Part shown: in pieces, positions 1 through 36,821 of the stretch
How the letters are laid out: each line of letters opens with the position of its first letter
Numbering within the stretch: the first letter of the stretch is position 1
Assembly: GCA_003568945.1 (NCBI GenBank)
Contig: BDIP01000002.1
Location: forward strand, 9,426-50,007
Length of the DNA: 40,582 nt
Reading direction: 5' to 3'
Origin: Kipferlia bialata
Lineage: Eukaryota
Notes under the pieces: model-generated
What the model saw: only the letters and a program-made list of their open reading frames with translations
What the model was told of the DNA's origin: nothing
The model's database searches: none
Position numbers and translations under genes: made by a program

Positions 1-178
1 TTAGTATGGTATGTATCCCCCCCCCCCCCCCCCCCCCCCCTTACCCATTTTCATATCTCTTCACTTTTGATAGTGTATGTTTACTCTTTGAACCCTACCA
101 CCACCCATGCACCGACCACTAACATGTTCCTCTTGTGATCAAGTTCTCCATATCCCATCGACAGTTCACAATACCGTC

Positions 179-219
<41 letters not shown>

Positions 220-327
220 ATTACATTAGTATAGGCAGACACTTTCAGATATGCTGTTGTTGTTGAGGATATAGGTCCACTCTATGATTCTGACCTCAGC
301 CACTCACTTCTCTGATTCCTATTTCAG

Positions 328-3300: not shown

Positions 3301-3456
3301 TCATTTGCATCCTAAGCACCCTTTCATTAACGTACACGAAGCCCCACACAAACCAGGAATCAGCGGTATAGATATAGAACTTGTATCTGTTACTATACCC
3401 TCATTGTATCTCTACAGCCAATGGCAATAGCCGATTCCCGCAAGAGGAGTGAATAG
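328..3456 (+). CDS. Multi-exon hypothetical protein (5' end not identified)
   Basis: Phase-consistent GT-AG exons at about 328-395, 743-848, 992-1037, 1169-1206, 1286-1451, 1801-1874, 1982-2093, 2342-2398, 2549-2636, 2935-3080 and 3418-3456 (PMAIADSRKRSE*). The frame stays open across all junctions. No family recognised. Confidence 0.6.
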
Positions 3457-3731
3457 TGGTATATGTATAAGTATAAGTATGATATACTAGCCTACATGGG
3501 TATTCCCATGACAGCCTTGCAACTTCACAGGTCAACCATAATGCCAATGTATGTTCATGAACAACTCCTGGTTCACTTACATACCCACTATATGATTATA
3601 TTTCACTTGCAACTGATACTATGAGAGTATCATATTACCTATACTCCTTCATTTGAGGACGAGCGTCTATGCACAAGACTCTATGTCCTCTCTCATCTCG
3701 TCCGTCTTATCCCAAGGCGCGACAGGGTGTT

Positions 3732-6333: not shown

Positions 6334-6552
6334 GTCACTGTAAGATAATGAGAGGCATGGAGATCATGTTGCATACATCGGTAGCAGATCCCATAGATTG
6401 ATTTCACAATTTAGTGACCTAGTGCGTCGCGATTGGAGGAGCATGTACCAATACTATAGCTTAGTTCTCCACACCCATTCCAGTTCTTGTTTGTATTCAC
6501 TGGACGCGATTTTCAAGAATAGTGTCTCTAGATTTATGTATAAGTAGTATTC

Positions 6553-9500
6553 CTAGTCTGTTCTCGTTTGTTGTGAATGGCATGTTATCTACTTTATGTT
6601 AGATCTGTCAGTATATCTCGAATGCATGCATTGTGTTATGTAACTCTACTCTAGTCTGTTCAGTTCTCGGTGGGTGTCAAGTCATCGGTAGCTATACATG
6701 TGCTTAGTCTGTCCTGTTCTCGTTTGTTGTGAAGGGCATGTTGACAGACCACCCCGGCATCAGGTTGGTGGGGCGCATCTCTCTGGAGAGTAAGAAAATA
6801 GTACCAAACACAATTGTATTGAAAGAGAGAGGTGTCAGACTGTACCTCACAAAGTCCTCTCTCCAGCCTAGGATGAAAGCCTCAATCAATGAGTCACACC
6901 GACGGGCCTAGGGGTAAGAGTAACTTGATGTGGAGATACATGATGTATACCCCTATCTCTGCTACCACACCTCTTCCGGTGTTTCGGTCACCTATCAGAG
7001 TGGGAACTGTTCCAGTTGTACTTTAACTACAATATATATATTAATATATAATATATATTATATTACTATAATCACTGTCTTTATCCTCTATCATATACCT
7101 CCACCGGTGTCACTGTCTCCCTTGGCAGTGGGGGTTGTGACAGTTGCACTATCACTGAATACATATATATGCAACATATATACTCTCTCATATACCTTTT
7201 CTGGTGTCAGTTTCCCCTGTCAGAGTGGGGGTGGTGACAGGTGAGCTATCACTATATACTATACATACACTATATATGTATATAGATAGTCCTACCTCTT
7301 CTGGTGTCACTGTCTCCCCTGTCAGAGTGGGGGTGGTACCTACTGTGCCCTCCTCTGACCCAGCCCAGATCTGGAATTCAGATTTTACTCAATACTCTTA
7401 ACACACGTAAAACTGTACAGTATTATCAAAATTCATATTATTTCTCCTAAATACCTCCACCATGTCCATGTATGTAGGATATGTCTCAAGGGTGTCAATA
7501 CATATATACACATTGTCATATACGCAATATACATCCATATAGTATATATATGCTGTATACACACAAATATCCACTGGTTACCTCCACCATTCCCATGCAT
7601 ATTGGACATGTCCCAAGGGTGTCAATAGGGGGGTGACCGAGGCCCTAGGGTCAGCAAGAGAGAGAGAGAGAGAGTGGTATTGAGAGAGAGAGAGAGAGAG
7701 AACGACAAGATATACATATATGAAGAGTATCTATAAATATACATACATACCTCGTGAATGAGGCACTGCATGTAGAGAGATCCGCGGGATAGCATGGGGT
7801 CGTTCGGCGTACGGGCCGGAAGGTAGTTGAGGATATGCAGCAGGGGATCTGATAGGATGGGTAGGGGAAGGGGGTCACATGCACTAGAGCCACATGGGGT
7901 GATGTCACTATCACCTACATCATCCCCTACATCTCTTATTCCCTCTTCTTGCTTCTCTCTCTCTCTCTCTTTCTCTGCCTCCTCTCTCTCTGCCTCCTCT
8001 CTCTCCTTCTTCTCTCTCTCCTGCACCCTCATGTATTCCCCATACATGCTCTGCACATCCGCTAGATTAGCAAGTAAGGCGTCAAGGTCCCCGAACTTGT
8101 CAAGGTGTGGATCATCCCATCCTGGGATGAGATACTATATTCACTTGACTCTGGGTATTCAGTACTCGTGTATACTGCAAGGAAGGTGACTGATGTTTAT
8201 ACCAACTGGCCACCTGATACTCACTCACGACTTTGCCTTGACAACACTTCTACTCAAAAATGTGTAGATAGTATGACACCCTATCTATACCAGGCATGTT
8301 ACCTGACACCCCCTCTTGGCACCCCCTTGCCTCGAGTATCCTGGTCTGGACATAGGCACAGAAGGGACTGCAGAGGTATCTGGAGTGAAATAGGTGTATA
8401 TATGCAGATACAGTGATAAATATACACGTAAATAGCCTGGACATAGTCACAGTAGGGACTGCAGAGGTATCTGAGGGTAGAAACATATATATGTATACAC
8501 TGAGAGAGAGTAAGAGGGGAATATATCCACCCAGGAATGAAAACTTACAAGTATTCGCCACAGAGACAGTAACATCAGCCCATGCCCTTACCTACACACG
8601 AGATGGTACATCTCCTCTATCCTGGCATCAGGAATCTGACTCTTGCATAGACCCTGTCTGCCCATCCTCTGCCTCAATATGGCACTGGAGTGACAGCCGG
8701 CCTGCATATAAGTACATATTAGCATACTAGTAGTATACACTATACTATACTTTTGAATACTATGATATATATATGCCCATCCTCCGCCTCGGGATCTGGA
8801 GTGACATCCTGCCTTAGAGTAAGAGACGTGTATATAATGATGATTCACCTTCATAATGTGTTCAATATATACTCTCACTCTTTGTCCTATAAGCATATTC
8901 GCACTGTGACCCACCTTCATATTGGGCGGGATGGCCTTAACAACAGCATCTCTCTGTCTTCTATATAATTGTGAACAATACAATCATTCTGTGTATTCTT
9001 ATATACAGAGTAACTGTGACCCACCTTCATATTGGGCGGGATGGCCTCTCCGATACCAAGGCCTGGGGTGAGAAACAATGACACCAATGCTACAAGGGAC
9101 TAATGGCCACATACCTTGAGGTGGGATGCTGTACTTTGCATCCACCACCCCTCTGTACCGCCCTGCCACATCCTCAGCCGAGTGGTGGCAGTGGTCACAC
9201 ACAGCTACTACCTATGATTAAAACTCTATAATGGATATAATATATATGGTATGATATAAACATGAGGGGAGAGATACACTGCCACATCCTCAGCAGAGTG
9301 GTGGCAGTGGTCACACACAGCTACGACCTAGTGTTAGACACTTAGAGAGCGGGGGAGAGAGAGATAGAGAGAAAGATATACATCCTCAGCAGAGTGGTGG
9401 CAGTGGTCATTGGTATTGATGATATATGTATCCACTTTGACGTACATCTGCTGAGTTATGGCTCTTGTAGCACGGGGGCATGTAGCGCCGGTACTCACTT

Positions 9501-10712
9501 GGGTAAGTCTGAAGTATATATAGATACCACACTTAATACATATATATATCTATATATTCATATATGATTTGTGTTTAGGGACTGATTAATACAGTATACA
9601 CTAACATACCGGGGCACGATGTGGTGCAGCGTCAGGAAGGTGAATACATATGATTAGCACATGTAGCAATATATAACAGAATGACTAGAACTAGCTAGAC
9701 CAGACATACCGAGGCACTATGTGGTGCAGTCTCAGGTAAGTATGATTGGCATATATAGCAGTGTGCAAGTGAATGTCCAGAACTAGATAAATACTAAACA
9801 TACCGGGGCACTATGTGGTGCAGTGTCAGGCCATGCTCCCTGTCTGCTCCGCACACCACACACTCCTCCTGGGGTGGGATACATATACGTATAAATGTAT
9901 ATATTAATATATTGATAGAGAGAGAGAGGGAGAGAGAGAGAATGTTCCCTGTCTGCCCCACATCAACACATTCCTCCTGGGGCAGCTATAGACAAACAAA
10001 TATACACAACATATATTAAGGGAGCGATACATGCTGACAGACATACGCATCATCAGTATGGTGGCATCCTGCCTCTCTGTCCTTTGTGAAGTATGTCTCG
10101 TCACTCTATATTCCGAGTATGAGCATACACAATACCAATATATCAACCCATACGAAGGCGCACACACACACTTATATATATATAAATACAATTGTCATCA
10201 TTTATACCTCCCTGTCCTTTGTGAAGTATGTCTCGTCTGTCCTCCCGTGGTGACCCATGCCTGGTATGAGAGGTGGAAATATGGGTAAATATACACATTA
10301 TAGTACATTGAACATGAGTACATGGTATTGCACTGTATGTATATCCGGTCACGGTGACCCATGCCTGACAGTGAGAGGTGGACAGAAGCTACAATATCTA
10401 TAATTATACAGAATGAGATTCCATACCAACAACTCTCATTTTTGAGTTCCAAGAGCTGATTGTGAATTCTTAAGCCTACCTCTTGGCCTGAACAATAGGT
10501 CTATCCTCTTCCTGTCTGTGTCACCCTCCTGATAGGTGGCCAGGCCCTTGTTGACATACCAGTCGGCACGGCGCCTGAAGGTAAGAATACACATTAATAC
10601 TAATGTATAAATATATAATAATATATATATACTGGTAAGCAATAGTGGCTTGGCCCTTGTTGACATACCAGTCGGCACGGCGCCTGTAAATAAGAACCAC
10701 ACACACATATAC

Positions 10713-10750
<38 letters not shown>

Positions 10751-10970
10751 GCTGATCATATTGCTGACATATCAATGCAGAGGGTGGGGGAGAGGGGGAA
10801 TACTTATAGCAGGTACAATAAATGTATCATACCTGCTGAGTGTACACAGAACCTTTCCCTCGTATGCCATCTGGATATTCTCATAGATAAGGACCTGGGG
10901 TCAAGAGAGAGAGAGAGAGAGAGAGACAGCGAGTAGTGGGTTGTTCTCATAGATGAGGACTGGGGTCAGA
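6553..10970 (-). repeat. Intronic and 3'-flanking echo copies of exon ends throughout the EXD2-like gene
   Basis: Copies at about 6553-6590, 6968-7010, 7095-7142, 7193-7238, 7452-7500, 8436-8475, 8772-8815, 8903-8937, 9280-9332, 9380-9410, 9605-9637, 9705-9736, 9942-9982, 10070-10103, 10352-10370, 10650-10688 and 10940-10970, each next to its source exon. Confidence 0.9.
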
Positions 10971-11188
10971 CAGGGAGGGGGAGAGAGAGGAAGAGAGAAA
11001 GACAGCGAGGGACATGGATCAATATATAGAGCGATTTGGATATGGGGAAAGTAGAGGGGGAGAACAAATGGTAAATGAGAGATAGAGAGAGAGGTACAGA
11101 GGGAGATGCGTAGGGTGAGAGACTGAGTGGCTGGTGAGAGTAGCAGGAACAGACGGAGGTCAGGTGGATAAGGAATTGTACTCAACAT

Positions 11189-11228
<40 letters not shown>

Positions 11229-11509
11229 TAACTAGTACCTTGTGGCAGTATCTGTGGTTGGACTGTGGTGCTGCATCGGAGGATGGGACTTCATGCTCAG
11301 TCTGACAGTGAGAGACAGACAATGATGATAGAGGAGAAGACATGGAAGAAACAGTTAGGGGGGGGGGGGGCGGTTAAGAAGTACATAATGCAACGACATG
11401 ACAGTATGTGTGTGGCTACCCTCACCTCCGCTGTCTCCACCCCTGTTCCCTCTGGTGCTGTTGCAGTGTCAGGAAGATCCATACCACTACCCTCCTGGGC
11501 CTTTGTCAT
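6704..11509 (-). CDS. EXD2-like HNH/zinc-binding domain protein lacking the 3'-5' exonuclease domain (16 exons, 481 aa)
   Basis: Exons 11509-11426, 11301-11239, 10894-10833, 10574-10480, 10260-10208, 9868-9804, 9497-9446, 9211-9115, 9062-9025, 8701-8592, 8379-8303, 8121-7751, 7644-7582, 7370-7296, 6907-6846 and 6782-6704 join in frame. Motifs YENIQM..GKVLCTLSRRRADWYVNKGLA, CVVCG..LHHIVPREYRRYMP..KSHNSADVVAVCDHCH and WREDFVREMRPTNLMPGWSV parallel the C-terminal half of EXD2 as I recall it (YDNC..WYLDKG; CVVCG..PHEYRKHFP..HNSHDV..CxxCH; WRQHF..MQPKHLP..WSV). Confidence 0.85.
11190..11226. repeat. (GA)n microsatellite, representative of many intronic (GA/CT)n and (TA)n tracts
   Basis: Directly visible. 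Others occur at 182-210, 10715-10750, 12352-12378, 12770-12793, 35625-35650 and 36788-36818. Confidence 0.95.
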
Positions 11510-11739
11510 ATAGCTACAACGTGGCAGGAAATAATAATTCCCGCACCAAGTATGTGGAAAGAGGTCTCTGCGTTTCTGATTCCGGTGTGGCCCAAATCGT
11601 TTGAAACGTGCTACTCAGACTGAGTGCTTTGCGGCCATCTCTCTTCTCACCCTCAAATGCCCTCATGCCAGTACCCAGCAGTCGCAGCTCGCACAGCAAT
11701 TTGCGCCCCCTAGCCTCTCATCTTCGATACCACCGCTAT
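11510..11739. promoter_or_regulatory. Putative bidirectional promoter region (230 bp)
   Basis: Lies between divergent start codons at 11509 (-) and 11740 (+) and lacks the microsatellites seen in introns. Position-based inference only. Confidence 0.45.
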
Positions 11740-12348
11740 ATGCGCATATCTCTTGTGCTGTGGTGTCTCATTCTGCTTCTGCTGGCCCTTCTGACTGCCG
11801 CACAGTCCCCTGGGCCACCAGATGCCTCTAAGACGCCTCTTTGGAGCCAGAAAGGGCGCCAACCAGCCCTCCGTGGCATTGTACGGGCACCAGAGGATAT
11901 GGCGATGCATCCTGCTGCCCATAGCCCTCCACCCTCCTCTCTTCCCACCCCTAAAGATGTGGATACTGATGTGAGTTCTGATGGTGTGCTGTTCCCTTCT
12001 GTGCAGGTCAAGGGTACTACGCTGGATATCATACCCAGCTGGCCTGTGACGGTGTACCCCTTACACGTCGAGGACAGTCAGGTATCAGTATATATATCAA
12101 TACATATCGATTGTCTTATCATCTCCTCTGAGTCCCAGGTTGGATATTCTCTTTCTCTTTCTCTGTCTCTCCCCTCCCACACACACACCGTATACTGATA
12201 ACCAGGTTGTGTTGAGGTTCTCTCTCCCACACACACACTTTATGTTTGTATATATGTGTCTATCTGATACCCATCTGGGAGCACTACCCCCCCTCCTCTC
12301 TTTGCTCAGTTTTGACACCAATGCATCTGATGGTATCTGGGAGCAATA

Positions 12349-12384
<36 letters not shown>

Positions 12385-15300
12385 CATTTTCGTATTCCCT
12401 GTCTCTATCCATCTCCACTAATAATCTAGGTCATCTTTACCTTTGACACCAATGCCTCAGACCTTATGGTATCTTGGGGCACTAACCCCCTCTCTCTCTT
12501 ACACTAGTCCTTCTATACTTTTGACACCAATGCCTCTGATGGTGTCTGGTACCAATCCCCCTCCTCTCACCCCTCTACCTCACTGTCTACTATCTACCTC
12601 AGTCTCTTACACTCAGCTGTTGTTCACCTTTGACACTGATGCCTCAGACGGTGTCTGGGAGCACTACCCCACCTACGACTACACCACCACTCTGACCATA
12701 CCCAGTGAGCCCACACTGAGTGTGTCAATATGCAGTCAGGTATATATGGATACATATGTATATGTACATGTATATATATATATATATATATATACACAAC
12801 TACGACTACACCACCACCCTGACCATACCCAGTGAGCCAACTGTGTCCATATCCATTTGTGACCAGGTATCTATGGGTATATGTGTATCTATGCATATCT
12901 ACATCCATAGTGTCTGCCACCGTTACCATACCATCTGTGTCCATAACGATATGTGACCAGCTATCAACCCCCCCCCCCATCTCTCTCTCAATCATTCCAA
13001 GTACTATACCCCCTCTCATCTAAGCTTATCATTTTAGCTTATCTCTTTCGGTATTCAAAGTCCGTTCCCTTATGCGTATATATCGATTCATCCATTCTAA
13101 TTGTCTTCTCCGCGGTATCCACAAGTTATGCATATACCTATGCTAGCGTTTTCCATTACTGGCACCGCCTTCATACCCACTCTCTCTCTCTCCCGCTCTC
13201 TCTTACCACAGTCCACCTCCGAGTGGACAGTATGTATATGTACATGTTCATATATTCACTACCATAGATATTCTCTATTATACTAATCCCAGGCCACTCT
13301 GAGTACACGGTGTACACCCATCCATATGATCCCCATTTCTCTCTCTCTCTCTCTCTGCCTCTAACTCTCCCTCACTCTCTTACCCTCAGTCCACCTCTGA
13401 GTGCACCGTGTCCACCCCTTCCCACGATGCCTCTATCCTGGACACATACTCCACCCCACTGCCCTATACAGTTACCCAGGGCTGGGTAGAGTGCACATTG
13501 ACTGTACAGGTACTATATATATATATGTATACACTAACACGCCTCTGTCCTGGACACATACTCCACCCATCTGCCATATGCCATATCCCAAGGATGGGTA
13601 GAGTGCACATTGACTGTACAGGTATGGGATATACACTAACATGCGTAAGTATATGTATATATATACCCCTCTGCCCTATGCCATATCCCAGGGATGGATA
13701 GAGTGCACACTCACAGTGCAGGTATGGGATATATATATGTATACGCTAACACGTATATATATACATATATATATATACCCCTCTGCCATATACCATATCC
13801 CAAGGATGGGTAGAGTGCACACTCACAGTGCAGGTATGGGATATATGTGTGTATATATATGTATATCGTATACTAGCCTAGATAACACTGGTAAACACAT
13901 GTGAATGTGTGCCAATCTCTCATGGCTGGATAGAGTGCATACTGACAGTGCAGGTATGAGAAACAAGCTATGCCCATAGATATATGTATACTCTCCTATG
14001 TATACAAGTGGAGTAATGTGTTTACATATATTTGTAATGTCTCACCCCAGGACTGTACAGTCGTGGTTCAGAATGTGTACGATACCCCTGATGTCACTGA
14101 GTACATAGGGGAGGTGTCCCTGTCCCTACCTGTCTATGTACATATGGACACGTTCCCACTCAGCCATGTGTCACTGTTCGGTAAGTGCATATTTATACTT
14201 AGTCTGATCTTTGGCATACAACACAAATATATACATATCCTGGTGACACTGACCAATTCCTGATACACCTGCAAGTAGTAGTGTATAGTCCAAAACCCTA
14301 CAGAGAACACTAACCCTCTCATCCCACCTAGACTACACCATATTAGTGTCATATATAATCGTGGTGTACGCTCAGTAACACTACTAGCATCATACCCCGT
14401 ACTACCCACAACCCCCCCCCCCTCACCCCAGACCTCCCCACCTCCATGTGCCCCGAGTCCTCTGTGAGTGTGTGTGGCAACGTGGCTGCCATAGGGTGTC
14501 CCTTCCAGTATGAGAGTGACGGTGTCACCAGAGACACATCATATCCAGGGGCTGTCTACATATACGCAAGGGAGAGCGAGATACACCCTTGGATTCAGAG
14601 TGAGTACTCGTCTCCCCTCACTGGGGATGCTCTCTATGGGACATCAGTCTCTCTCTACCAGGAGTCAGAGGGGATAGTGGAGCTGGCAGTCTCCATTCCA
14701 TCGCTAGACACTGTCTCGTTCTCTAGGTGGAGTGTAGATGGGGTTATTGTGACCTATCTCTCCCAGCAGCCAGTGAGTGTAGACCTTAAGCTGCCTGATA
14801 TAGTGGCCGAGGAGGACAAGACAGCTGCGAGAGACTACATGGTCCCACTACCAATGGTATGTAAATGTGTAATAGTTCACCAACAGAGACCTACTCCCAA
14901 CTATCTATATTGAGATGGAATCATTTACGTGGAATTGATCCCTCATCCTCAGGCAAGGAGTGAGCGGTTCTTACTCGTTGCCGACAAGAACAAGTCACGC
15001 CCAGGTAGCACAGTCAGTTGGAGTGGTATATCTTCTGTATTGTATTCGTAGTACATTGACTGACAGCAGGGAGAAGAAGGGGGAACATATACAACTCAGT
15101 GGAGCTTTGTGACATTGTGATATGTAAATTTCATCTCATTGTCTATGATTACTGGCAGTAGGAGTTTGGTACCAGTGAATATGTCTCTATTTATTCATTC
15201 CCTTGGTCTGACAGCAGGAGAGAAGAAGGGTGTGGTGCACTCTTTCTGGAAGGACTTAGGCACAGGTACGGGGATATACCATCGTATATACTCATTTTTG

Positions 15301-18300
15301 TTGTCAATATAAATCCCATTAAACGATACTTTGTCCCATTGTGTATCCTGTCCTGTGTATGTTGCACAGATACTCTGTACATCCAGTGAGTACACTACAT
15401 CCTATGTAATTATTAACTCTCAGGTGTTTGGTCCTACCACATGGCGATCTACGGTGCCACCGAGGGTGGGGTTACCTTTGGGGCAGGTATATACACGTAT
15501 TCCTTTCTAATCTTGTTATAGTTCTCTATGATTATAGAGAGCGTTCATACTCTATCTAGATCACCTTCCTCTACATCATTGTATGACCGCACGATGTGTG
15601 AACCTCAACCGTCTGGCCATTATTTGTATTTATATCAGAGTATATATATACATTAATATATATACTCTGGCCGACTGGTACTAATATTGTCAGGTGTGGC
15701 CATCAACCCCTCTGAGACCCATGTGGCAGTGAGTACCTACCTCACTGCTGACAGAGACACTGGCGAGAACACCTCAGTGTTCATGTTTGCGTACGATGAC
15801 TGGGATGAGTGGTGGAAGGACGGGGAGGTATCAGTGCACGGCTATGGGCCTCTGGATAGGCGGGTCATCAACGATGGGACTTCTTACAGGTATACACTGT
15901 GCCACATATACATCTTATAGTCCCAGCCTTGGGGGACTATTGCTTCTTCATATATATACTATCATCTACACATATACTATATTCTATATGTATACTCTTA
16001 CAATCAGGCACTCTGTTGCGATGACTGATGACACCCTAGTGATAGGCACCCCTGACATCGACCACTACTCATACTGGTGGGGACTGGCCACAGTGCTCAC
16101 TAAGGACACTATCAATGGGGACTGGACCTACCAGGGTCAGATCGAGGCCCCACTCTCTACATCATTCGGGTACCACGTCTCCGTGGCAGAGAGTGAGGAT
16201 GGGACTCCTCTGCTAGCCGTCTCTGACCCCATGTACGGCCCGATCAGTCTGAGTGATGCGAGTGTGCGTGTCTACCGTGTAGATTCCATTGTGGGTGAGG
16301 TTGAGGCCAGTGGGATAGAGGTCAGGATGGGGGGTGTAGCACCTGCCTTTGATGGACAGACTGTAGTAGATGGAGGGGCACATTCCATGGCTCAGTGGAC
16401 TAGTCTGGAGACAGGTAATACTATATATGGAAAATGTAGCATATACATGGATCTTTCTAGTGATTGAGTAGGTACATGTCAAGTCCATTCGTATCAACCA
16501 GGAGAGTACAGGTTAGTGTGCTCAGTTCGTTCTTACCCACAGGTCCCAGCTACATTCGTCCCCTCTCCCGTACGCATGTTGTCTCCTCCCCCTCCTCCGC
16601 CCATATCCACTGTGACCTGTACGATGACCTACACGATTCGTCCCAGGGTGATGTGTCTCTCGTGTATACCACCCCTTCCACCTCTACCGTACTCAGTACG
16701 GTCACTGGCCAGTTGGAGTTGGATCACTCCTTCTCTCTAGATGCAGGAGTAGACGACACTCTCTTCTTCCATGCTGTACCTGGTGATCACGAGTGGGAGG
16801 ATCACACACATAGTCTACTCTCTGTCACTGACAGTGACTACTACCTGCCAACCTATCTCAAGGTGGATATAGTAGCGGAGACAGATCTCCCCACTCTCCA
16901 CTACATCGAGGGCTTCCACCCCATCTTCAAGTACTCCACTGAGCTCTGCTTCTCTGTATCGGACGCTGACCATACCCCTGTACCCAACATCTGTTGCATG
17001 GGTCTGTCGGTGGATGGAGGTGACCCTATCACTGCTGTCTACGATGCAGACAGGGAGTGCTACTCCGTCTCTATGGCCGGTCCCCTGTCCCAGGGTAACG
17101 CCGATGTCTCCCTTGACGTGCCTCTGGGAGAGTATCAGGGCACAACACTCAGCACTACTGTATACGTGTATGGAGACGTCAATACGTTGTCTGTAGACGG
17201 TATCCCAGGGAGTGTTTCCACTGGTGAGATTATGGATGTGGAGGTGACACTCCGTGATGGTGACAGTATGGTGCTGCCTTATGACGATGGGTATCTGTGC
17301 TCTGTGTATGTCACAACTGATCCAGATGTAGAGTCTGTGAATGGAGGGGAGGGTACTACAGTGGTGGCTGTGTGGGATACTGCCGTGAGTCTGTTCAGAT
17401 CCAGTGTCACATCTACCTCCACACAGGCTGACAGGGTGGATGTGTCTGTAGAGTGCGTCTATGAAGATGGTGGACAGACGCAGACGTACTACAAGGATGC
17501 CTCCTATGAGATCAGTGTGAGAAAGGCAGAGGCCGATCCTGCCGCATGCTCAGTCTCAATGACATCTTCAGCCACCCTTCTTGATATATCTGCTACTGGG
17601 TCATACAACGTCACTGCTGGTACAGGGTTTGGGATTGATGTCGTCCTTGTTGATGAGAACGGCAACCCCATGCCAGACGCTGACCTAGACGTCATGGTGG
17701 GAGGTGGATCTCTCACTGCATCCTATGACTCTCCATCAGATACCTTCTCGTGTGTGGGAGAGACCGGAGACTACACCACTGCCAGGACATACCTTGTCAC
17801 ACTCAGTGTTGCATCAATCGGCATTGACGAGTTCGATCTGGTTATCCTACCAGAGGATACACCTAGTGACACTGAGTCAGACGTCACTGTCAATGGCAGT
17901 GCTGATGCAGTTGCAGGGGTCAATGCTAGTGTGACTGTCACCTTCAAGGACCGCTTCGGCAACACGATAGAGTACGACTCTGTGGTGGGTGGGATTGATG
18001 GCAGCACTGACCCATTGACCGGTGACTCTGGTACCTACTCTGGGTCACTGCCCACTCCCACGGTCAGTGGCAGTTACTCCTTAGAGATGGTCGGTACCCT
18101 GGATGGCACATCCTACACCATAACCCGTACTGTCTCTGTTCTAGCTGGGCCTGTCGTGTCTGGTACTGTGCTGACACCCTCCGTATTTGCCGCTACCGAG
18201 ACAACCACACTGACAGGCACTCTGGCAGATATGTATGATAACATACCCCTGTGTGGAGTAGGGTCCCTCACCCTCTCCTTCACAGACGACTACGCCACTT

Positions 18301-21300
18301 CGTCCAGCTGCACGTGCTCTGACAGTACATACATCTGTGATATAGTCCATGACACAGGGTGCACTGCTCCGTCAGAAGAGCAGGACATCTATGCATGGCT
18401 GGATGGAGAATACATTGGTTTCACATCAGTGACAGTAGAGACACACATTGTGGAGGCTGTGCCTAGTGGACCACTCTATGTTGAGACCCCTGAGTTGCAG
18501 TTTGTGCTTCTGGACACGTATGGTACTGAGATACCATCGCTTTCACCTCTGCTGGTGATGATTGATAGTGACGTCGTGGGATATGACTTCGATGATGGTC
18601 TGGACTGCTATATCGCCACAGTGCCAAGTGGTATAGGCCTCGGTGTCCACGACCTATCAGTTACAGTCAATGACCCCACGTACCCTCTGGCGATAGTGGT
18701 AGCAAGTGTCAATGTCTACGGCCCCTTGTTTGGTATCACTCCCGATGCCACATCCTACTCAACCGTTGCAGGGGAGTCACTGTCTCTGGGTTTCACCCTC
18801 ACTGATGATAATGGAGCACCCATTCCACACAGTGACGTCTACCAGTGCATTGTCACTGTGACAACAGATGGTGGGGTCACAGAGATCAACGCTGGGGATG
18901 GAACCGAATTCGACGCTGTTGCAGCGATTGAGAGTGGTGTATTCTCTGTTGATGTGATATCTGTCTCTTCCGAGGTGACAGAGATATCCTACCTAGCAGA
19001 GTGCTCTACGAGTACTGGCCCTCTCGATACTGTCAGTGGGACTGTGCCTCTAGATCTCAGTCCTGCTCATGCCTCTTCTGAGGAGTCCTATGTATTTGCC
19101 ACGTCAGGCTCCAACAGCCTTGAGAGCGGCATCCTAGACTCTGTCGCTGGTGAGGGTTTCAGTATCGCACTCTCTCTCTATGATGTGTACTCCAACAGTG
19201 TGGTGGTTGAGGCCGAGGACGTGGAGGTCACAGTGACAGCCAGTGACTCCTCTGAGACGCACCTCGGCGCATCACTCCTTGGTACCATGTACTCAATATG
19301 GGCCAGTGGTGCCCTCTTTACAGTGGCAGAGACTCTCTCTGTAGACATTGCTGTATCAGACCAGACTGCCTTCTCGATGTCCTTCACTGTCAATGTCTAT
19401 GCTGATGTATCTACCTATGAGGCTCTATCTACTGTCACTGTTGGGGATCTCCTGTCGGCGTTGGGGAGACCGTCACTGTCTCGACCTCATTGTTGGATGA
19501 GTACTCCAATGTGATCGTGTATGACTCTGTGACATGCCACCTCTACAGTGACCAGACTGCCCCTTGGCCCCTCTTCCTAGGGGAGGATGGTCTGTACACT
19601 GGGTCAGTTACTGCTCCCACTACCCCTGGGGACGTTGACGTTATAGTGGTTGGACATATGGGGGAGGCCACTTACTCCCTGACTGATAGCGTCTCAGTAG
19701 TACACGGTGATGTGTCTGACTACGTTATGGTAGAGACCAGCATCGATGCTGACACCACCACTACCATGCATGTTACCACAGTGGATTGCTTTGGCAACGT
19801 TGTCCCTCCCAATGGCGTTGATCTCCTCTGCAGCAGCCTGAACGACACCGACTTCCCCTCCTGGTCCTTCTGTACAGAGACAGACACTGCCTATGAGTGT
19901 GAGGTCACCCACGACATTGCACCAGAGCCAACTGCAACTGTACATATATTCTACGGTGGGATGACCATTGGGTCCTCTACTGTCGATGTCATTGTGCACC
20001 TGGATCAGGTGGTAGTGGATCCCCTCTTCAGCCTGTCACAGAACCTCCCCTTCACCATTCTCGACCAGTACGGAGATGATGTCGGTGATATTGGGACAGT
20101 GTCGGTGTCATTTGATGGCACTCTAGCTGGCATGGCCACCTTCGATCAGGACGAGTCCTGTTACATGGTAGATGTACCAGCAGCTATGCCTACCCTAGGA
20201 TCACACTCAATGTCAGTGACGGTGTCTGAGTCTAGCTACCCCACAGTGACCCTGTCTGAGACATTCAGTGTGTATGGACAGTTGGACTCGGTCATTGTGG
20301 ATGAAATGACCTTGCCTGTCACAGCCGGCGACCCAGTACTTGTCACAGTCTCTCTGGAGGACGCCAATGGCACCACCCTGTATGTCACTGATACTGTGTA
20401 CTCGTGTGTGGTATCAGTGGATAGTGATGTGGGAGTTCTGTCTCAGACCTCTGTCGATGCTGAGTGGGACGCCGCTGAAGAGTGGTTCTCAGCCGCTGTG
20501 ACATCTACATCCACCCTCTGTACCGAGTTACTTGTCACTGCTGAGTGTGTGGTGTCTGAAGGCGGCCAGACTGATACTGTCATTCTATCAGTCCCTTTCA
20601 CTGTTGTACCAGCTGCTGTTGACACTGAGTCATGCATTGTATCCCTTTTGGCCGATGCAGTAGCTGTTGGTGATGCAGTTGACACCTTCGATCTGACTGC
20701 TGGTTCCACTCTCTCTGTCTCTGTGACACTACTCGATGTGTACCTTAACCCCCTAACTACCTTGGATGACGTCTCGGTCGAGGCAGTGAAGTCTCTAGCC
20801 GTCTCTTTTGACTCTGATACACATGAGTACTCAACTGATGCATTCTGGACATCAGTGCAGTCTCTGGATGTTATTGTATCTTGTGCTGCGGGTGTCCTCA
20901 GAGAGTTTACAGTCAATGTCACACCTGACACTGCTGGTCCCATTGATACTGTTCTCTCTATCAATGGAGGTGTATCTGCTGTAGAAGTTGGATCCTCTGT
21001 GGATGTGAGTGCAGACTTCTCTGACGAGTTCGGCAATGTGATTGAGTTTGACTCTGTTACATGTGGGTTTGGCAGTGTAGCTGCAGCAACCAATGATATG
21101 GCATGGGCTAGCGGTAGTTACGCTGCATCTATGTCTGCTACCATAGTAGCACGGGATGTCGATGTCTACTTTGTAGGCACTGTGGGGGATGTCATTCACA
21201 CTGCTTCCATGACCCTGACTCTTGAGGCTGGAGGTCCAGACAACTGGTCCCTGATCACCCCATCCTACCTCAAGGCATCCAGTGTCACTTCCATAACTCT

Positions 21301-24300
21301 CAGGGTCAATGATGGGTATGGCAATGTCTTGACCAGTCCTGGGCTGCTGAGATTTGCTCTTGGTACTGATGACGCTGGTTCTGAGACTGCTATCTCTCAC
21401 AACACGACAGAGTGCGACAATGACGCCGATTCTTACTTATGTATCGTTGACTGCGATCTGGATCCTGCACCAGTTGCGTACCTCTATGTATGGTGTGATG
21501 ATGTTTTCATAGGGGTACAGGCTGTTAGTATGGTGCTGCACCTAGATAGTGTATCATTCCTTCCCCAATACACTGGGGCTGACACTGTCCGCTTCCATGT
21601 ACTCGATGACTATGGTGTGTCTGTGGTTGACTTGTCACCCGTCACACTGACCCATGAGGGTGTGACTGTCGATGCGACCTTTGACAGTGAGCACCAGTGG
21701 TATACTGCTCCTGCACCTTCGACATCTGGCCCAGGTGTCCACTCTGTCTCCGTATCAGTCTCAGACACCGACTATCCTGATCTTACTGTGTCTTCATCCG
21801 TCGCTGAGTACGGGCCAGTCTCTAGTATATCTGCCTCTGGTATTCCTGTCAGTGTAGTTGCTGGTGAGGAGATGTCAGTGTCGGTGGAGCTGCTGGATGG
21901 TGAGGGAGTATTGTTGCCTGTGGATGGGGCGTATGTCTGCACGGTCACTGTCACAACTGATGTCGGGGGTCATCTAGATGGGGGAGCTGGGACAGAGTAC
22001 ACCGCAGACTATGATCAGACACTCAACGTCTACACCGCCAGTGTCTCTTCGCTGTCGACAGAGGCTGTCGATGTGCAGATATCCGCAGAGTGTGTATCTG
22101 GTGTGCTATCTCCAGATATAGCAACTAGCTGTGTACCATTAACTGTGGAGGCCAGTGCTGTGGACCCAGCATCAACTGATGTACTCTTTGAGACCGGTGG
22201 AGTCAGTCTCGGTCTGAGTACTGACGCATTGACTGCTGGTGCTGCTCTGAGTGTGTCTGTTCTCCCCTATGATATGTATGGGAACGGTGTCTCCGGTAGC
22301 ACTTGCACCTCTGAGATCATGAATGCCCTGGGTGATATGATTGTAGAGTCCACTGCTGTGGAGGCCGATGATAATTCCTACACGATTGACATTGAGGCCC
22401 TTACACTCACAGAGGCAGGGGTATACGATATATATGTCACCGTGGATGGTGTGTCCATTGATGTATACACTCTTAGTGTTGTGTCAGAGAATGCCCCAAG
22501 TGAGGAGCTCTCGGCTGTGACTCTGGGTGGTGGTGCAACCAGTGTCACTGCAGGCTCTACAGTTGATGTCTCTGTAGCCTTTGTGGACACGTTTGGGAAC
22601 AGTATCGAGTACGACACAGTTGACGGTGCCTTCGCTGGTGGTGAGGCAGTACCCATGTCTACCATTGCTACTATTGGCGAGTACTCTGGATCCATAGTAG
22701 CACCCACACTCGCTGGAGATACAACTCTCACAGTGACTGGACACATTGGGGGAGTCACCTACTCTCTGGATATGGATCTGTCTGTATCGGCCTGTAGGGC
22801 GACACACATACACACCCTGGACTCCACTGGTATCACAGCTGCCGGTGTCACTACCCTGTCAGTCGAGGTCCATGACATATACAACAACGTGGTGGGTTGT
22901 GGTGCAGCTCTCCTTGTATCACTAGGGGATACCATGGGTTCGGCCTCTGAGTGTGTAGATAGTGGCTCCACATACACTTGTGATATCACCCATGATATCG
23001 ATCCATCATCAGACGTCTCTATCCACTCCTGGTTCGGAGGGGTGTACCTTGGTACCGCGACAGAGCCTGTGATTGTCAACCTAGATAGTGTTGTCACACT
23101 GCCAATACTCTCCACCTCGAGCACCCTACGGTTCAGTGTCTTTGATGTCTATGGTGTAAGCGTGTGTGACCTCACAAGTGTCAGTGTAACTTGTGAAGGT
23201 GTTTCTACAGATGCATGTTACGACTCTGATGCTGAGTGCTACACGACTCAGTTATCGATCGTATCCGGTGACAGCCCTCACTCTCTGACTCTGTATATTG
23301 CTGACGCCGCATACCCTGACGTCAACCTGACTACATCATTCACTGCCTATGGTCCACTGGATACCATCACATCGAGTGATATCACTACACTTGTCACTGC
23401 GGGAGAGGACTTTGATCTTACTCTCACTCTTCTGGACTCCGAGGGCACAACCCTTCCCCTTGACCCAGAGTATACATGCACAGTATCCATAACTACTGAT
23501 GCTGGTAGTATGACTGTCAATGGTGGACTTGGGTCAGTCTATGTTGCCACTCTTAGTGGCCCTGAGCACGTGTATACCAGTAGTGTGTCCTCAGTCTCCA
23601 GTGAGAGTGACTCTGTCCTTGTCACAGCTGATTGTATGTTTGCAGATATGGCAGACACTGTCACTGTGAGTGTACCACTCACAGTCCAGCCGAGTGAGGT
23701 TGATGCTTTCTCCAGTGGCTACACTGTGACATCTGAGGGTGTCGACCTAGTTGCTGGCAGTGACTCTCTCTACACGATAACAGCTGGCAGAGGGTGGGGT
23801 GTAGCTGTGACAGTGTGTGATGAGTATGGGAACCCTGTCAGTGATGGCTGTGTTGTCTCTGTATCTAGCACACCTGCCACAGAAGAGCCGTCACTTCTAG
23901 GGTCACAAGACGCACAAGTGTCTGGAGTAATATTCACCGTTGATCCTGCTGGATATACTCATGCTGAGACCCACACTGTTGAGCTAATGGGTAATGACCT
24001 CCTAATTGGTTCCTTTACACTCAATGTGGTCGCTGATATGACACCCAGTGACACAGAGTCTACTATATCAGTCAATGGTGGAGAGGTACTAGTTGCTGGA
24101 ACTGACGTCCCTGTGACTGCCGATATCCGTGACATGTATGGTAACTCCATCCAGTATGACAGTGTGACATGTGAGGTGGAGGGTGTGGATGGAAGCACCC
24201 TCCTAGTCTCAGATGGCGATGGGTCAGTGTCTGGAACACTATCCATGCCCACAACCGTGGGTGATGTCACATTGGATCTGGTTGGTATCTTTGGGGCCGA

Positions 24301-27300
24301 CAGATACACACTGTCTAGTACCCTAGAGACAGTTCCTAGTGTCGCTGCATATGCCGAAGTGAGTACCTCTACTCTATGGTCAGGGGAGGTGTCTACTGCA
24401 AGTGTCGTTGTCACTGACCAGTACAACAACCCAGTGGCACTTGGTACCACTCTCTCAGCCTCTCTCAGCGATGTTGTGGATACTGCGTCAGAGTGTATCT
24501 GGGTGGACACACAGTACGAGTGTTACGTGACTACACTGGCAGTACCTGGTACCACTGTTGACATATACCTCTGGCATGAGGGCACCTCACTGGGAGGTCA
24601 TACCCTAGACGTCATGGGGAGTATTGACTCGGTGGTAGTTAACCCTGTGTTTGAGTCCGATGAGAGCATTGAGCTGGTCCTCATGAATGCAAGTGGGGCT
24701 GAGATGTCGGTGGACTCTATCAGCGTTGCTGTGGACTCTGGTTACCCAATTGTGGTGACGTGTGATTCCGATTCTGCTTCGTGTAGTGTCCCACTTGCAC
24801 AGTCTCTATCAACTGGATCACACACTGTAGACGTCTCAGTAACCCAGGACGGCTACTCTGATGATGTCGTATCGGCAACCTTCAATGTCTTTGGAGGTAT
24901 TCATAGTGTCGAATCGACCCATCCGACTCTCACTTGTGACGCTGGGGAGGCGGCTACACTTGCTGTATCTCTGCTGGATACTGCCGGTTCCGTTCTACCC
25001 GCCGACTCCTCATACAAGTGCACTGTACAGGCAACAGTCATATCAAGTGACACAACAAGTGGTGAGAGTGTAGACCTGGAAGAGGACTCTGGCGTATACA
25101 GTGCATCCCTGACTCTGTTCTCAGTGGATGACACTAGCATTATGGTGGTTGCAGAGTGCGCTACTGAGTCTCAGAGGTTCACAGACGTGGTGTACCTGGA
25201 GATGCCGCTGGAAGTGACCCCTGGGGATCCGGACCCCTCAGAGTCTGTAGTGTGTCTACAATACCCTGACGGCGCATCCCACTACTGTCTGGATGTCAAT
25301 TCCCACAACGTCACTGCCGGGCAGGGTTTCAGTGTCATCACCCACCTACACGACATCTACGGTAACCACGTGACAAGTGAATACGCTGCTGTCCGTTTAC
25401 TCGTAGACGGGCTGGACAGTGTATCACTAGACACCGTCTATGACACCAATACACAGTCCTTCACACTCGACGTGCTGGGGGAAGACTACACGATCATCCA
25501 GCATCTTGAGGTATCAGTAATGGTGGGAGATATACCCATACGGGTGTTTGACTTGGACATTGTGCCTGAGACTAGTGCTAGTCTTGCAATGTCGACTGTC
25601 AGTGTCAATAGTGGTCAGGACGTTCTGGTGTCTGACAGTGTGTCAGTGTCAGTGGTTCCAAGGGACTCTTATGGCAACCTGATTCACTATGATAGAGTGT
25701 CAGCTGGGTTCCTAAAGAGATCTCTTGCCCATATGGAGCTGGCCTTTGACGGCACTGATACCTACTCGGGTACCCTCTCAGCGCCTCGTATTGCCGGAGA
25801 CATACCCCTCTATATGCACTGCTCTCTCGGCAACCACAGATCCGATCTGGAGGCCACTGTATCAATCCACGCTGGTGATGGGTCTACATTCTGTGTCCAG
25901 TCCCCCACTCATCTCATCGCAAGTACATTCAACGGTATCTCTGTCGCCATACTAGATGAGTATGGCAACGCAAGGGTGGGCGACCACACTCCTCTCTCTG
26001 TTGCATACACAGATGATGTCACAGCTGCTATCCCTTGCGCTGCTGGTGATGACACCTACTCCTGTCTGCTCCCATCGCCACCAGTCAATGTCAGTGTGGC
26101 TACTGTGTATGCCTGGTATAACTCCAGTGCCCTTGGTGAACACTCTATGCGGATCGTTGGAGCTACTCCTGACAGTGAGTACTCAATTGTCTCACCTAGT
26201 TCTGCAGTTGCAGGGTCGGCCGTCCAGGTCCACGTGTCTCTATTCGCCAATGGTGGTGTCAGGGTACTCAGTGGGAACTTGGAGCAAGACGTCTCTCTGC
26301 AGTGGGGAGAGTCGTCTTCAGACGCTGTGCCGGCTACGTATAGTGCCACCTCCCAGGCCTGGGTGTGTGGCCTTACAGCTCCAACAACCTCTGGGGCCCA
26401 GTCTCTCAACGTCTATCTGAATGGGACCCTCTTCCTGACTCATTCAGTGGAGGTAGAGGACATGGTGCCGGACGCCACTCGATCCACTATGTCTCCTTCC
26501 ATTGCACCCACTGACAGCGCCCAAACCTACACGATATCACTGCGGAATGACCTGGGATCCTCCATCAGAACCACCTCTACCACCGTCTCTGTCGGATGGG
26601 AGGATGGGACTCAGACCCTTGCTTCCCTTGACAGTCAGAGTGGTTCATACACTGTATCCCTACCGGCACCTGATACTGTTGGACCCTCAATACTGGAGGT
26701 ATACTGTGACGGAGCCTATCTGATGAGTCACACTGTTGTAGCCTTTGCGCCTGTTCTCTCGTTCGAGAGTGATCCAGTCACAGAGATCACTGATCACGCC
26801 GAGTATGGGTATGGTAATGTAGTGGCTACATCAGATAACTGGAAGGCAGTCTCTGCTCCCACTGACGGCCTAGTAGACAGAGGCGTCGTCTACTTCTACG
26901 CGGCGGGTACCACTGATGTATCACTCTCACAGGTGGTATATGCCGACCAGCCCTCGGAGAGCGGACTCTTTGGCTACGCGATGTGTCTGACAGAAGCAGA
27001 TGACGGGTCAGGTATCGCGTACATTGGGCACCCTGGTGTGGAAGCAGTGGAGGTCTACCAAGAGACTGACGGTGTATGGAACTACACGAGAACAGTTGAG
27101 GCACCAGATGGTACTGAGGGTGATGGGTTCGGTAGTAGTGTAGCATGTTCCGGAACCAGACTGCTAGTCGGTGCACCTAATACATACTCATCTCTGGTGT
27201 CGGAGTCTGGTGCTGCATTTATGTACTCATGCACTGATGGTGTGTGTGAGTATGCACAGAGGCTCCAGGCTAGTGTGCCTACTGCTGAGGCACACCTAGG

Positions 27301-28960
27301 GTCCAAGGTTGCTCTGTCTGGCGATGTTGCTGTACTGACAACATCTGAAGATACTGGCTCTGAGACTCTAGTGTATGAGTATGCTTCTGCGTTGTCCCAG
27401 TGGGAACTGTCTGCCTCAATACCCTATGGCGGTGGGGACATTGCCGTGTCCGATGGGATACTAGCCATAGCCTCGGCAGAGTTTGACAGTGGGTTTGGAG
27501 TCTTCTCTGCAGACACTGAGTGGGGGACAGTAGGCTATGTCTCTGAGGAGAGTGTCGATGAGTCCAGTCCCAGCCTTGACTACTCTTCAAAGAGTGTGAC
27601 TACCCAGACTACAACTCTATCCCTTGCAGGTGGTACCTTAGTCGTAGCGAGCAGTGACTCCTCACACGTCTCTGGTTCCGTTACTGCTTACACCCTTGAT
27701 GACTCCTCAGGTGTGTTTGTGGGAACCTCCCCCATTATTACCTCCACCCGTGCCCCAGCCTCTGTTTCCCTCGACAACAACGGTAACCTGGTCGTTGGTA
27801 GCTACTCTGCTGCTGGTTTTGGGTTGAGTCAGTTCAACCTGGCCACCCCTGCTGCTCTAGTCTTTGATGGGGCACAAGGTGCATATGTGCAGGGCACCCC
27901 CAATGTGGAGCTTAGCTACCACTTCATGGATACACTAGGGGGTAGTGTGCCCTTGAACGACGGTGTGTCACTAACTGTAGGGGATAGCTTGGTGAACGGA
28001 GTGAAGGACGGTTCGCTAGTGCGATACACATCTACAGTTGATATCCCTGTCACTGTGGGTCCCAACTCCATTGTGGCCAAGCCGGCCTCAGATGCTGATC
28101 TACTAGTAGGTGGTATGATGGTGACAGTAGGCCCTGCCTCTCCAGATACATCAGAGGTGCTAACAGACACAGCTGTAGCTGGCACTGCCACACCCCTAAG
28201 TGCAGTGCTCAAGTCAGCCTATGGGGATGTGAACGATATACCACAGGACGTGAGTATAGCATGGACCAACGAGGATGGCACAGTAACATCAGTAGCATCC
28301 ATTGACTCTGACACCGGTGAGTACACTGCAGTGCTGTCAGGTGGCACCAGGGCAGGTCTAGCCAGTGTAGTAGTGTCTGTTGGTGACGACCCAGTCTTCA
28401 TGACCAAGTCCATATCCATTCTCCCAGACTCCCCCCATCCAGCTTCATCCTCTGTCACTCTACCAGAGACCGTATCCTCTGATGCCACTGTACCCTTTGA
28501 CACACATGTCCTAGACCAGTATGGCAATGTTTGTGATGGCCGGTCTGTCACAGTCATGATGAACAGCATGGAGACAGCAGAGGCAGAGTGGAACGAGGAG
28601 ACACAGTCCTACGTCGCCATGGTGACCCTACCTACTGAGGGAGAGACCGACTTCCAGGTGCTAGTAGATGGGGAGGCCCTCCTCTCAGTCAATGTCTCTG
28701 TCGATGGGTATCCATTGGAGGCATACATTGCTGTGGGCATGCTGGGTATCGGCCTCTGTGGTCTATCCGTGGCATGGGTGTTCTCCAAGTGCTCAAGGAA
28801 GGACACCAAGCTCGAGCTCTTGAACTTCGAGCCAGATGTGACTGTGATGTCTGTTGTACAGCAGCCCAGGCATGCTGCATTCAACACCGACCCAAGGAAC
28901 CAGGGGCACGGACTGGGAAGAGGGTTCACATTTGATTACGAACTGAAGAATGCGAGCTAG
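11740..28960 (+). CDS. Giant type-I membrane adhesin-like protein (FG-GAP propellers plus filamin/invasin-like Ig repeats), about 4,774 aa, with one -1 frameshift near 19445
   Basis: Signal peptide MRISLVLWCLILLLLALLTAA. Exons 11740-12081, 12617-12739, 13390-13509, 14051-14180, 14432-14856, 14953-15004, 15218-15265, 15424-15486, 15694-15889, 16008-16414 and 16543-28960 are phase-consistent. The ORF-track entries 16464-19514 and 19490-28960 are consecutive parts of one repeat array. It has recurrent D-x-[YF]-G-N motifs, FG-GAP blades (FGYHVSV..LAVSDP; GFGSSVACSGTRLLVGAP), a TM helix at 28721-28783 and a ~58-aa tail. Confidence 0.88.
12255..13960 (+). repeat. Intronic tandem 'echo' copies of exon ends plus splice sites in introns 1-3 of the giant gene
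   Basis: The exon-2 start is echoed at ~12262, ~12300, ~12430 and ~12510, and its end at ~12798-12866 and ~12918-12960. The exon-3 start is echoed at ~13205 and ~13290. Its end (..GAGTGCACATTGACTGTACAG|GT) is echoed four times, ending at ~13621, 13721, 13833 and 13953. Confidence 0.9.
16900..26150 (+). repeat. Six diverged coding super-repeats of about 1,540 bp (~513 aa), each with about five Ig-like modules
   Basis: Homologous anchors AEADPAACSV (~17530), AHASSEESYV (~19060), AAVDTESCIV (~20610), SAVDPASTDV (~22150), SEVDAFSSGY (~23690) and GDPDPSESVV (~25220). Each is followed by 'AG..V...D.yGN' and 'D.fGN.I.YDSV'. Boundaries are approximate. Confidence 0.8.
26760..27840 (+). other. Second FG-GAP (integrin-alpha-type) beta-propeller domain within the giant protein
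   Basis: Blades YGYGNVVATS..AVSAP..GVVYFY, LFGYAMCL..YIGHP..VEVY, GFGSSVACSG..LVGAP..GAAFMY and HLGSKVALSG. Confidence 0.75.

Positions 28961-36784: not shown

Positions 36785-36821
<37 letters not shown>

Follow-up and report, generated by a model that had tools for sequence, protein, structure and literature searches.

Why do introns of Kipferlia bialata contain copies of the exon ends next to them, and why do these copies differ from the exons much as coding sequences differ from one another? The locus that raises this question is a 40,582-nt window of contig BDIP01000002.1 (assembly GCA_003568945.1, contig positions 9,426 to 50,007; positions below are those of the window), where a giant gene on the plus strand, gene A, stands head to head with an unrelated gene on the minus strand, gene B (KIPB_000033). 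We call a copy of an exon end inside the adjoining intron an echo: a donor echo is an exon end followed by GT, and an acceptor echo is an exon start preceded by AG. An earlier, sequence-only reading of gene A had singled out its echoes as possible silent variant cassettes of a surface gene; the echoes do exist, and all the codon strings that it quoted are present in the window. Comparison of exons and echoes reveals a synonymous and conservative excess beyond chance, and we lean, with some confidence, to the view that the echoes derive from the exon ends of working alleles that had diverged, were placed in tandem by recombination in which only exons pair, and are now decaying. All counts come from this single window of about 40 kb, in which two genes carry scored echoes.

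Layout and codon-level divergence of the echoes

Each echo consists of a half-exon plus flanking intron sequence. In genes A and B, 26-28 copies span an exon end and its splice site: 28 were scored by hand (12 in gene A and 16 in gene B, for a total of 354 codons) and 26 were found automatically. The echo units measure 100-130 nt and are stacked in up to five copies per exon end. In a shuffle-thresholded survey, an echo match was detected in 4 of the 10 introns of gene A, in 10 of the 15 introns of gene B and in 2 of the 33 introns of the other modelled genes in the window, where the exon coordinates of the right-hand genes were guessed, with two acceptors misplaced, and weak echoes fall below the threshold. 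The median length is 282 nt for introns with an echo and 95 nt for those without, with about 106 nt per echo.

The codon count was aligned by hand, and the codons left out lie mostly beside gaps. The 173 differences comprise 89.7 synonymous (S) and 83.3 non-synonymous (N) changes, with 28 differences at second and 98 at third codon positions. They were compared with a null model of one constrained and one neutral copy, simulated at omega 0, which expects a ratio of non-synonymous to synonymous divergence (dN/dS) of at least 0.5. For the 28 echoes pooled, this null yields 66-71 synonymous differences (P 0.002-0.007) and 53-56 radical or stop changes, as against 26 found. The dS between exon and echo ranges from 0.26 to 0.59. 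The pooled dN/dS is 0.27 (bootstrap 0.18-0.37), with values of 0.30 for gene A (upper bound 0.44), 0.19 for gene B (upper bound 0.38) and 0.30 for the nearest echoes only (bootstrap 0.16-0.49). The sequence-only reading had proposed that the copies were under protein-level constraint, which would place pooled dN/dS below the value of about 0.5 expected with one neutral copy; within the window, this is the case.

The automatic re-detection, with its detection step simulated inside the null, served as a repeat of the codon count. The synonymous fraction of its 26 matches is 0.51, as compared to 0.37-0.40 expected (P 0.005), and it is 0.48 when one match per exon end is kept (16 ends, P 0.03-0.045). 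In the hand-aligned set, one echo per exon end gives a synonymous excess with P 0.015-0.030. Taken gene by gene, gene B shows S 27 and N 17, the former against 18-19 expected (P 0.002-0.007), with a radical-change deficit that is not significant, and the four nearest echoes of gene A contain 9 radical changes where 16-17 are expected (P 0.002-0.02). Finally, adjacent echoes compared with each other (S 34, N 43) show a synonymous excess relative to a null with both copies neutral (P 0.0005).

The signal is therefore real, but weaker than the examples first put forward suggest. Those examples are the cleanest cases, while 83 of the 173 differences are non-synonymous, and damaged echoes had been omitted, namely those at 12430 (insertion and stop), 12916 (9 nt and the GT lost) and 13293 (1-nt deletion). 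The exon-3 end was described as differing from the CTC ACA GTG echoes by synonymous changes throughout, which holds for the second and third echoes; the first is identical to the exon there. The contrast drawn for the exon-2 end, a near-identical lead followed by a divergent end that includes an AGT/TCC switch, is fully borne out: the first donor echo differs from the exon at 2 of its first 40 nt and at 14 of its last 30 (clustering P=0.0002).

This clustering is not isolated: two of the four echoes examined have their differences in blocks (P 0.0002 and 0.004), which is the pattern expected of recombination tracts. The exon half of several echoes matches the exon exactly or almost so. In addition, frameshifting indels are found in 7 of the 28 echoes and a stop in one; GT is lost in two donor echoes, and 13 of the 14 donor echoes retain GT or GC. 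For the 12 nearest echoes of gene B, 29 of 363 nt (8%) differ in the exon halves, compared with 32% in the intron halves. The corresponding figure is 36% for unrelated pairs and 11-16%, with a maximum of 20%, for simulations of plain duplication.

For gene A, the paralogue KIPB_000082 (P0001; full-length, 4,718 aa, 61-74% identity to gene A across long matches) provides an outside reference. At 62 echo codons, the exon and the paralogue encode different residues; the echo has the paralogue's residue at 22 of them (12 distinct sites), the exon's at 33 and another one at 7. This split does not suggest products of random decay or copies of today's paralogue. A further 130 codons encode the same residue in exon and paralogue; the echo differs at 24 of these, among them a stop and lost Cys and Trp. 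Judged from these residues, the gene A echoes seem to represent further versions of this gene's lineage, altered by later decay.

Proposed origin of the echoes and its alternatives

Overall, the dN/dS below 0.5, the contrast between intron and exon halves in gene B and the paralogue residues in gene A point to copies that diverged while working. Two functional lineages would be needed, because one locus allows only one copy as the exon. For gene B, alleles would be the simplest source, since a region search gave its own protein as the only match (one of one candidate, a weak result); for gene A, paralogues may possibly have contributed as well. Of the three models offered by the sequence-only reading, relics of divergent alleles inserted by recombination thus fit best. 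We propose that a break in an exon pairs with a diverged homologue only inside the exon. Repair would then copy the homologue's exon end, run into its unalignable intron and rejoin without homology; unequal crossover would be another way to this outcome. The newly acquired end would now serve as the exon, with the former end displaced into the intron. Since splicing takes the first donor or the last acceptor, survival would be limited to events across a splice site, and each repetition would lengthen the intron by about 106 nt. If omega is set to 0.1, the divergence in gene B can be roughly partitioned into about 0.2 of silent divergence before capture and about 0.03 of neutral decay after it.

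Published work provides supporting context, not proof. Metamonads are described as being without non-homologous end joining (NHEJ), and fornicates as having lost Rad51A while keeping two Dmc1 paralogues (PMC8516963); Dmc1 residues stabilise mismatched heteroduplex (PMC6719624); and in the hypervariable Schizophyllum commune, crossovers between 14%-divergent genotypes occur in exons (PMC4209137). More tentatively, in K. bialata, with mismatch-tolerant Dmc1 repair and no NHEJ, the introns might stack an ordered fossil record of former alleles that shows past sex and diversity.

Use of the splice sites could be followed where RNA-like contigs or a public model cover them. Run X2 is not on record as RNA and was taken as RNA-like from its GT..AG joints, which occur at four predicted introns of gene A. 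One 250-nt X2 contig has 158 nt on exon 1, and by arithmetic the remaining 92 nt would explain the depth seen where exon 2 begins; this fits a join of exon 1 to exon 2, which would skip the acceptor echoes of exon 2. A 1,602-nt X2 contig likewise fits the spliced length of gene B by arithmetic, and the public gene B protein corresponds to a 16-exon model that skips every echo. Where covered (gene B, and exon 1-exon 2 of gene A), only the first donor or the last acceptor is used; no X2 contig lies over the end of exon 2 or over exon 3.

DNA contigs come from run X1, which may itself be the assembly source. X1 and X2 both consist of contigs, so rare chimeras are invisible in them. X1 contigs with a depth of 294-447 and 0-2 other letters bridge 13380-13609 (exon 3 to its first donor echo), 12537-12743 (first acceptor echo to exon 2) and 13869-14422 (fourth donor echo to exon 4); among the longest X1 pieces listed, none spans 12341-12536 or 13610-13868. 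From the 40 listed X1 differences, 12 exon-1 rows and one difference beside an indel were left out of scoring; the remaining 27 substitutions fall in 23 codons, of which 15 are synonymous, and the three residue changes checked all match the paralogue. One X1 joint, 12708/12931 (depth 333), carries an extra letter that gives Asp, the paralogue's residue. A local deletion was rejected as its origin in view of this Asp and of undeleted contigs of similar depth. The joint appears to be the paralogue's exon rather than an exon-echo swap at this locus, in which case the second donor echo of exon 2 would be matched to at least 85% by the exon end of the paralogue; gene A's own exon-2 end differs from that echo at 15 of 30 nt.

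Several observations weigh against recombination between diverged alleles. With one echo per exon end, the tests reach modest significance (P 0.015-0.045 overall): the second-position deficit is gone in the hand-aligned set (20 vs 22), and the radical-change deficit is not significant in the automatic run. Neither is the synonymous excess of the four nearest gene A echoes (P 0.15-0.30 at omega 0), and the echo-versus-echo counts also fit the one-copy null (P 0.36). The intron-flank comparison is confounded, as the flanks are rich in microsatellites and may mutate faster; only 6 of 26 flanks lie above the 95th percentile of unrelated flanks, and in gene A the comparison has no discriminating power (0.33 vs 0.30). 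No divergent allele came to light, and a 4,455-nt X1 contig is free of other letters; the listed X1 differences seem, from the residues they encode, to trace to one paralogue. The concentration of echoes in two neighbouring genes (14 of 25 introns, against 2 of 33 elsewhere) is left unexplained by the repair-gene context. Lastly, the geometry of the recombination is itself a proposal.

One alternative starts from tandem duplication between sister chromatids, with the copied tract spanning a splice site. Neutral decay would follow, fast intron slippage and occasional exon-to-echo conversion would make the echoes patchy, and the synonymous excess would be owed in part to luck and to non-independent echoes. 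The same survival logic would account for copies straddling splice sites, and such a history agrees with the identical exon halves, the seven frameshifted echoes, the P values of the independent subsets and the single-locus cases already known (F7 IVS7, CBS 844ins68). Some echoes are indeed mostly non-synonymous (7500-7455: S 1.5, N 5.5; 13293-13333: S 3, N 7). However, plain duplication predicts a dN/dS of at least 0.5, above the bootstrap upper bounds of 0.37-0.49, and intron halves diverged by at most twice dN, whereas those of gene B reach 32% instead of 11-16%. It also sits poorly with the echo at 13777-13833, in which nine synonymous differences accompany no residue change departing from both the exon and the paralogue. 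On balance, we find this explanation unlikely. Another one, the joining of divergent haplotypes or strains head to tail at microsatellites during assembly, draws on the short-read nature of a draft with N gaps, on the TA and CT runs between echoes, on X1 as a possible assembly source and on the two stretches that its longest listed pieces leave unspanned. Yet separately assembled contigs at single-copy depth bridge exons to echoes, and frameshifted or stop-bearing echoes cannot be live haplotypes, which makes an artefact very improbable.

Two further explanations give the echoes a function. If they were maintained as cassettes, or under indirect selection, deletion or conversion between exon and echo would swap a variant end into the gene. 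The donor echoes that keep GT or GC suit this idea, since an exon-echo deletion would yield an in-frame variant end; the mosaic blocks show past exchange of the exon with an echo or a homologue, and the duplicated junction of human CBS has been proposed as a conversion template for the real exon (PMC2630376). The pattern is nevertheless equal in gene B, which is unrelated and not a surface gene, and frameshifts, a stop and lost splice sites are found among the echoes, so that the cassette proposal of the sequence-only reading is not supported. Furthermore, the replacements are mostly conservative and would offer little new surface, the giant extracellular part of gene A is intronless and free of echoes, the sole exon/echo DNA joint carries the paralogue's residue alongside undeleted contigs, and the genome paper found no VSP/CRP-type system (PMC5874029). 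Cassettes are accordingly improbable. The other function, translation of echo parts as micro-exons or through non-canonical splicing, could call on two in-frame candidates within echoes, at 13692-13721 (30 nt, CCCAG before and GT after) and 13212-13229 (18 nt, AG before and GT after), and on exon 3 being free of RNA contig cover. It meets a public gene B model, with its fitting RNA-like contig, that passes over the echoes, and a synonymous bias that reaches beyond the candidate micro-exons. None of the 14 donor echoes starts after AG, and all 11 read-through combinations are out of frame or contain a stop; the echoes are therefore not swappable exons by canonical splicing. These counts also speak against use by unusual splicing, suggested at the outset, and we hold translation of echo parts to be quite improbable.

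Three other routes were set aside. Copying from today's paralogue was rejected as a general source, given the 33 of 62 informative codons at which the echo has the exon's residue. On reasoning alone, symmetric exon-echo conversion cannot bring dN/dS below 0.5 and was discarded, and mRNA-templated refreshing of echoes would give a contrast between intron and exon, not a synonymous excess.

Should the echoes prove to be captured alleles, a single draft genome would preserve traces of recombination between lineages that differ by about 20-30% at silent sites, and it would show a route of intron growth (median from 95 to 282 nt) together with a footprint of Dmc1-only repair. If they are merely neutral duplicates, the locus is a dense example of a scar already known. 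A non-coding copy may diverge from its exon as coding sequence does and still have no present function.

The two genes and their surroundings

The window has the intron-rich make-up of eukaryotic DNA and contains runs of TA and CT; N gaps at 29885-30784 and 36329-36457, with long C runs at their edges, are typical of a short-read draft. The positions of the modelled exons and of the gene A echoes are collected in Table 1. The first part of gene A follows an 11-exon model with AG and GT at each intron and no stop, and exons 2-4 join in the same order in the paralogue. The downstream open reading frames (ORFs) match FG-GAP (E 5e-13) and Invasin_D3 (E 5e-9), and the translation has hydrophobic stretches at its N- and C-terminal ends; for these reasons the product is predicted to be a surface protein. 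The frame breaks near 19448 (19440-19450), at a G run where the paralogue is continuous, which may reflect either an error of assembly or a true frameshift. At 11689-11754, a second DNA contig is similar to exon 1 of gene A, while the annotated N-terminus of the paralogue does not resemble exon 1; the first exon of the annotated paralogue model may be wrong. No further gene A paralogue was found among proteins of up to 2,000 aa in word-indexed searches (232 candidates with exon 5, none of which scored, and none with exon 2), which is weak evidence.

Table 1 Features of genes A and B and positions of the gene A echoes in the window
Feature	Position	Strand	Remarks
Gene B, KIPB_000033, 481 aa, 16 exons, HNH/EXD2 C-terminal-like	6701..11509	-	16 echoes scored; matches in 10/15 introns
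Gene A exon 1, hydrophobic signal-like stretch	11665..12081	+	Start codon assumed; RNA-like contig on 11920-12077
Possible oldest acceptor echo (AG, then VVLRFS; paralogue exon starts VVFSF)	12205..12222	+	By eye, unscored
Acceptor-side echo a4 of exon 2 (IWEHYPP), without AG	12273..12293	+	Scored
Acceptor-side echo a3 of exon 2	12302..12349	+	S 6, N 5
Acceptor echo a2 of exon 2, AG kept; 5-nt insertion and stop	12430..12488	+	S 3, N 8
Acceptor echo a1 of exon 2, AG kept	12508..12561	+	S 6.2, N 8.8
Gene A exon 2, spliced copy, 41 codons	12617..12739	+	Collinear with paralogue; RNA-like contig depth fits exon 1-exon 2 join
Donor echo d1 of exon 2, then GT; mosaic	12797..12866	+	S 8.5, N 7.5; 5' part near-identical, last 10 codons divergent
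Donor echo d2 of exon 2; 9-nt deletion, donor lost (CT)	12916..12960	+	Last 30 nt resemble paralogue's exon end
Acceptor echo a2 of exon 3, AG kept	13212..13232	+	S 3, N 1
Acceptor echo a1 of exon 3, AG kept; 1-nt deletion	13293..13333	+	S 3, N 7
Gene A exon 3, 40 codons	13390..13509	+	Collinear with paralogue; no RNA contig on it
Donor echo d1 of exon 3, with GT	13541..13621	+	10/11 differences within one 27-nt block; DNA contig 13380-13609 bridges to exon 3
Donor echo d2 of exon 3, with GT	13665..13721	+	S 7, N 5
Donor echo d3 of exon 3, with GT	13777..13833	+	S 9, N 3
Donor echo d4 of exon 3, with GT	13912..13953	+	P, I, S, I in common with paralogue
Gene A exon 4	14051..14180	+	Exon model
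Rest of gene A, exons 5-11 and long terminal ORFs	14432..28960	+	FG-GAP, Invasin_D3 (Ig-like) matches; C-terminal hydrophobic stretch

The translation of the 16-exon gene B model is identical to the public protein KIPB_000033. Weak HNH matches and an Atlas TM of 0.50-0.52 liken it, as a lead only, to the HNH-like C-terminal region of EXD2. Gene B may be a stand-alone EXD2 C-terminal/HNH-like protein without the exonuclease domain. Its closest Atlas feature matches are unnamed, mostly phage clusters; the whole protein matched no Pfam family at E 0.01, and no solved structural relative was found. The last coding stretch of gene B (6705-6742) is echoed 3' of its stop at 6558-6586 and 6652-6681, with 28 of 29 nt identical, which indicates that edges between coding and non-coding sequence other than splice sites also gather copies.

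Genes A and B face each other across 11509-11665, with about 155 nt between the assumed start codons, and the echo-rich zone of about 6.5-14 kb surrounds this shared promoter region, which is perhaps a recombination hotspot. To the left, positions 1-6500 hold several intron-bearing genes of lower GC content, not modelled here, and are echo-free in self-alignment. To the right, one gene has an 18-nt identical donor echo above the threshold (36734-36761 vs 36817-36844), and three weak acceptor-side copies were seen by eye in the right-hand gene at 37361-37500 vs 37571. In the spacers of the exon-3 echoes, the word CTAAC recurs (13530-13541, 13633-13642 and 13745-13753) with no AG after it; it resembles the fornicate branch-point consensus (PMC6679479).

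Comparison with known systems

A literature search, supplements not included, listed no paper on exon-end echoes in Kipferlia, and no description of a sexual cycle or of diversity in K. bialata was found. Silent-cassette antigenic variation operates in Borrelia vls, in Neisseria pilS and in the mosaics of trypanosome VSG. The echoes have in common with these systems that they are partial, unexpressed, coding-like copies beside a predicted surface gene, with mosaic blocks. Unlike silent cassettes, they extend beyond the surface gene, to 10 of the 15 gene B introns, are bound to splice sites, conservative and decaying, and occur in a free-living host. They also differ from tandem mutually exclusive exons, as they are not whole exons with their own acceptor and donor in phase. 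With intron gain by tandem genomic duplication, they share a tandem duplication within a gene that is removed by splicing; here, in contrast, no new intron arises, and existing introns grow.

The closest parallels are human. In CBS 844ins68, an intron/exon junction is duplicated, and the upstream copy has a different allele and is spliced out (PMC2630376). The echoes are likewise copied exon ends with a splice site, removed by splicing, but the human case is one event with one base difference in one gene, whereas the echoes form stacks of up to five in two genes, at a dS of 0.26-0.59. In intron 7 of human F7, the unit of a 37-bp variable number tandem repeat spans the exon/intron boundary, the first donor is used and the downstream ones are silent (PMC1557585). 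These pseudo-sites are identical, while the echo units are 100-130 nt long and diverged, with a coding-like exon half and a near-unrelated intron half. The echoes agree with this class of boundary duplications in lying in the adjoining intron, and depart from it in that neutral decay from an identical start does not describe them (dN/dS 0.27; intron halves in gene B 32% vs 11-16%). Schizophyllum commune offers the condition that the proposed mechanism needs, recombination between divergent genotypes confined to conserved exons, although that study describes clean crossovers and no half-exon scars (PMC4209137). The boundary-spanning layout is already known; what sets the echoes apart is the combination of deep coding-like divergence and near-unrelated intron halves, at both donors and acceptors, in the majority of introns of two unrelated genes.

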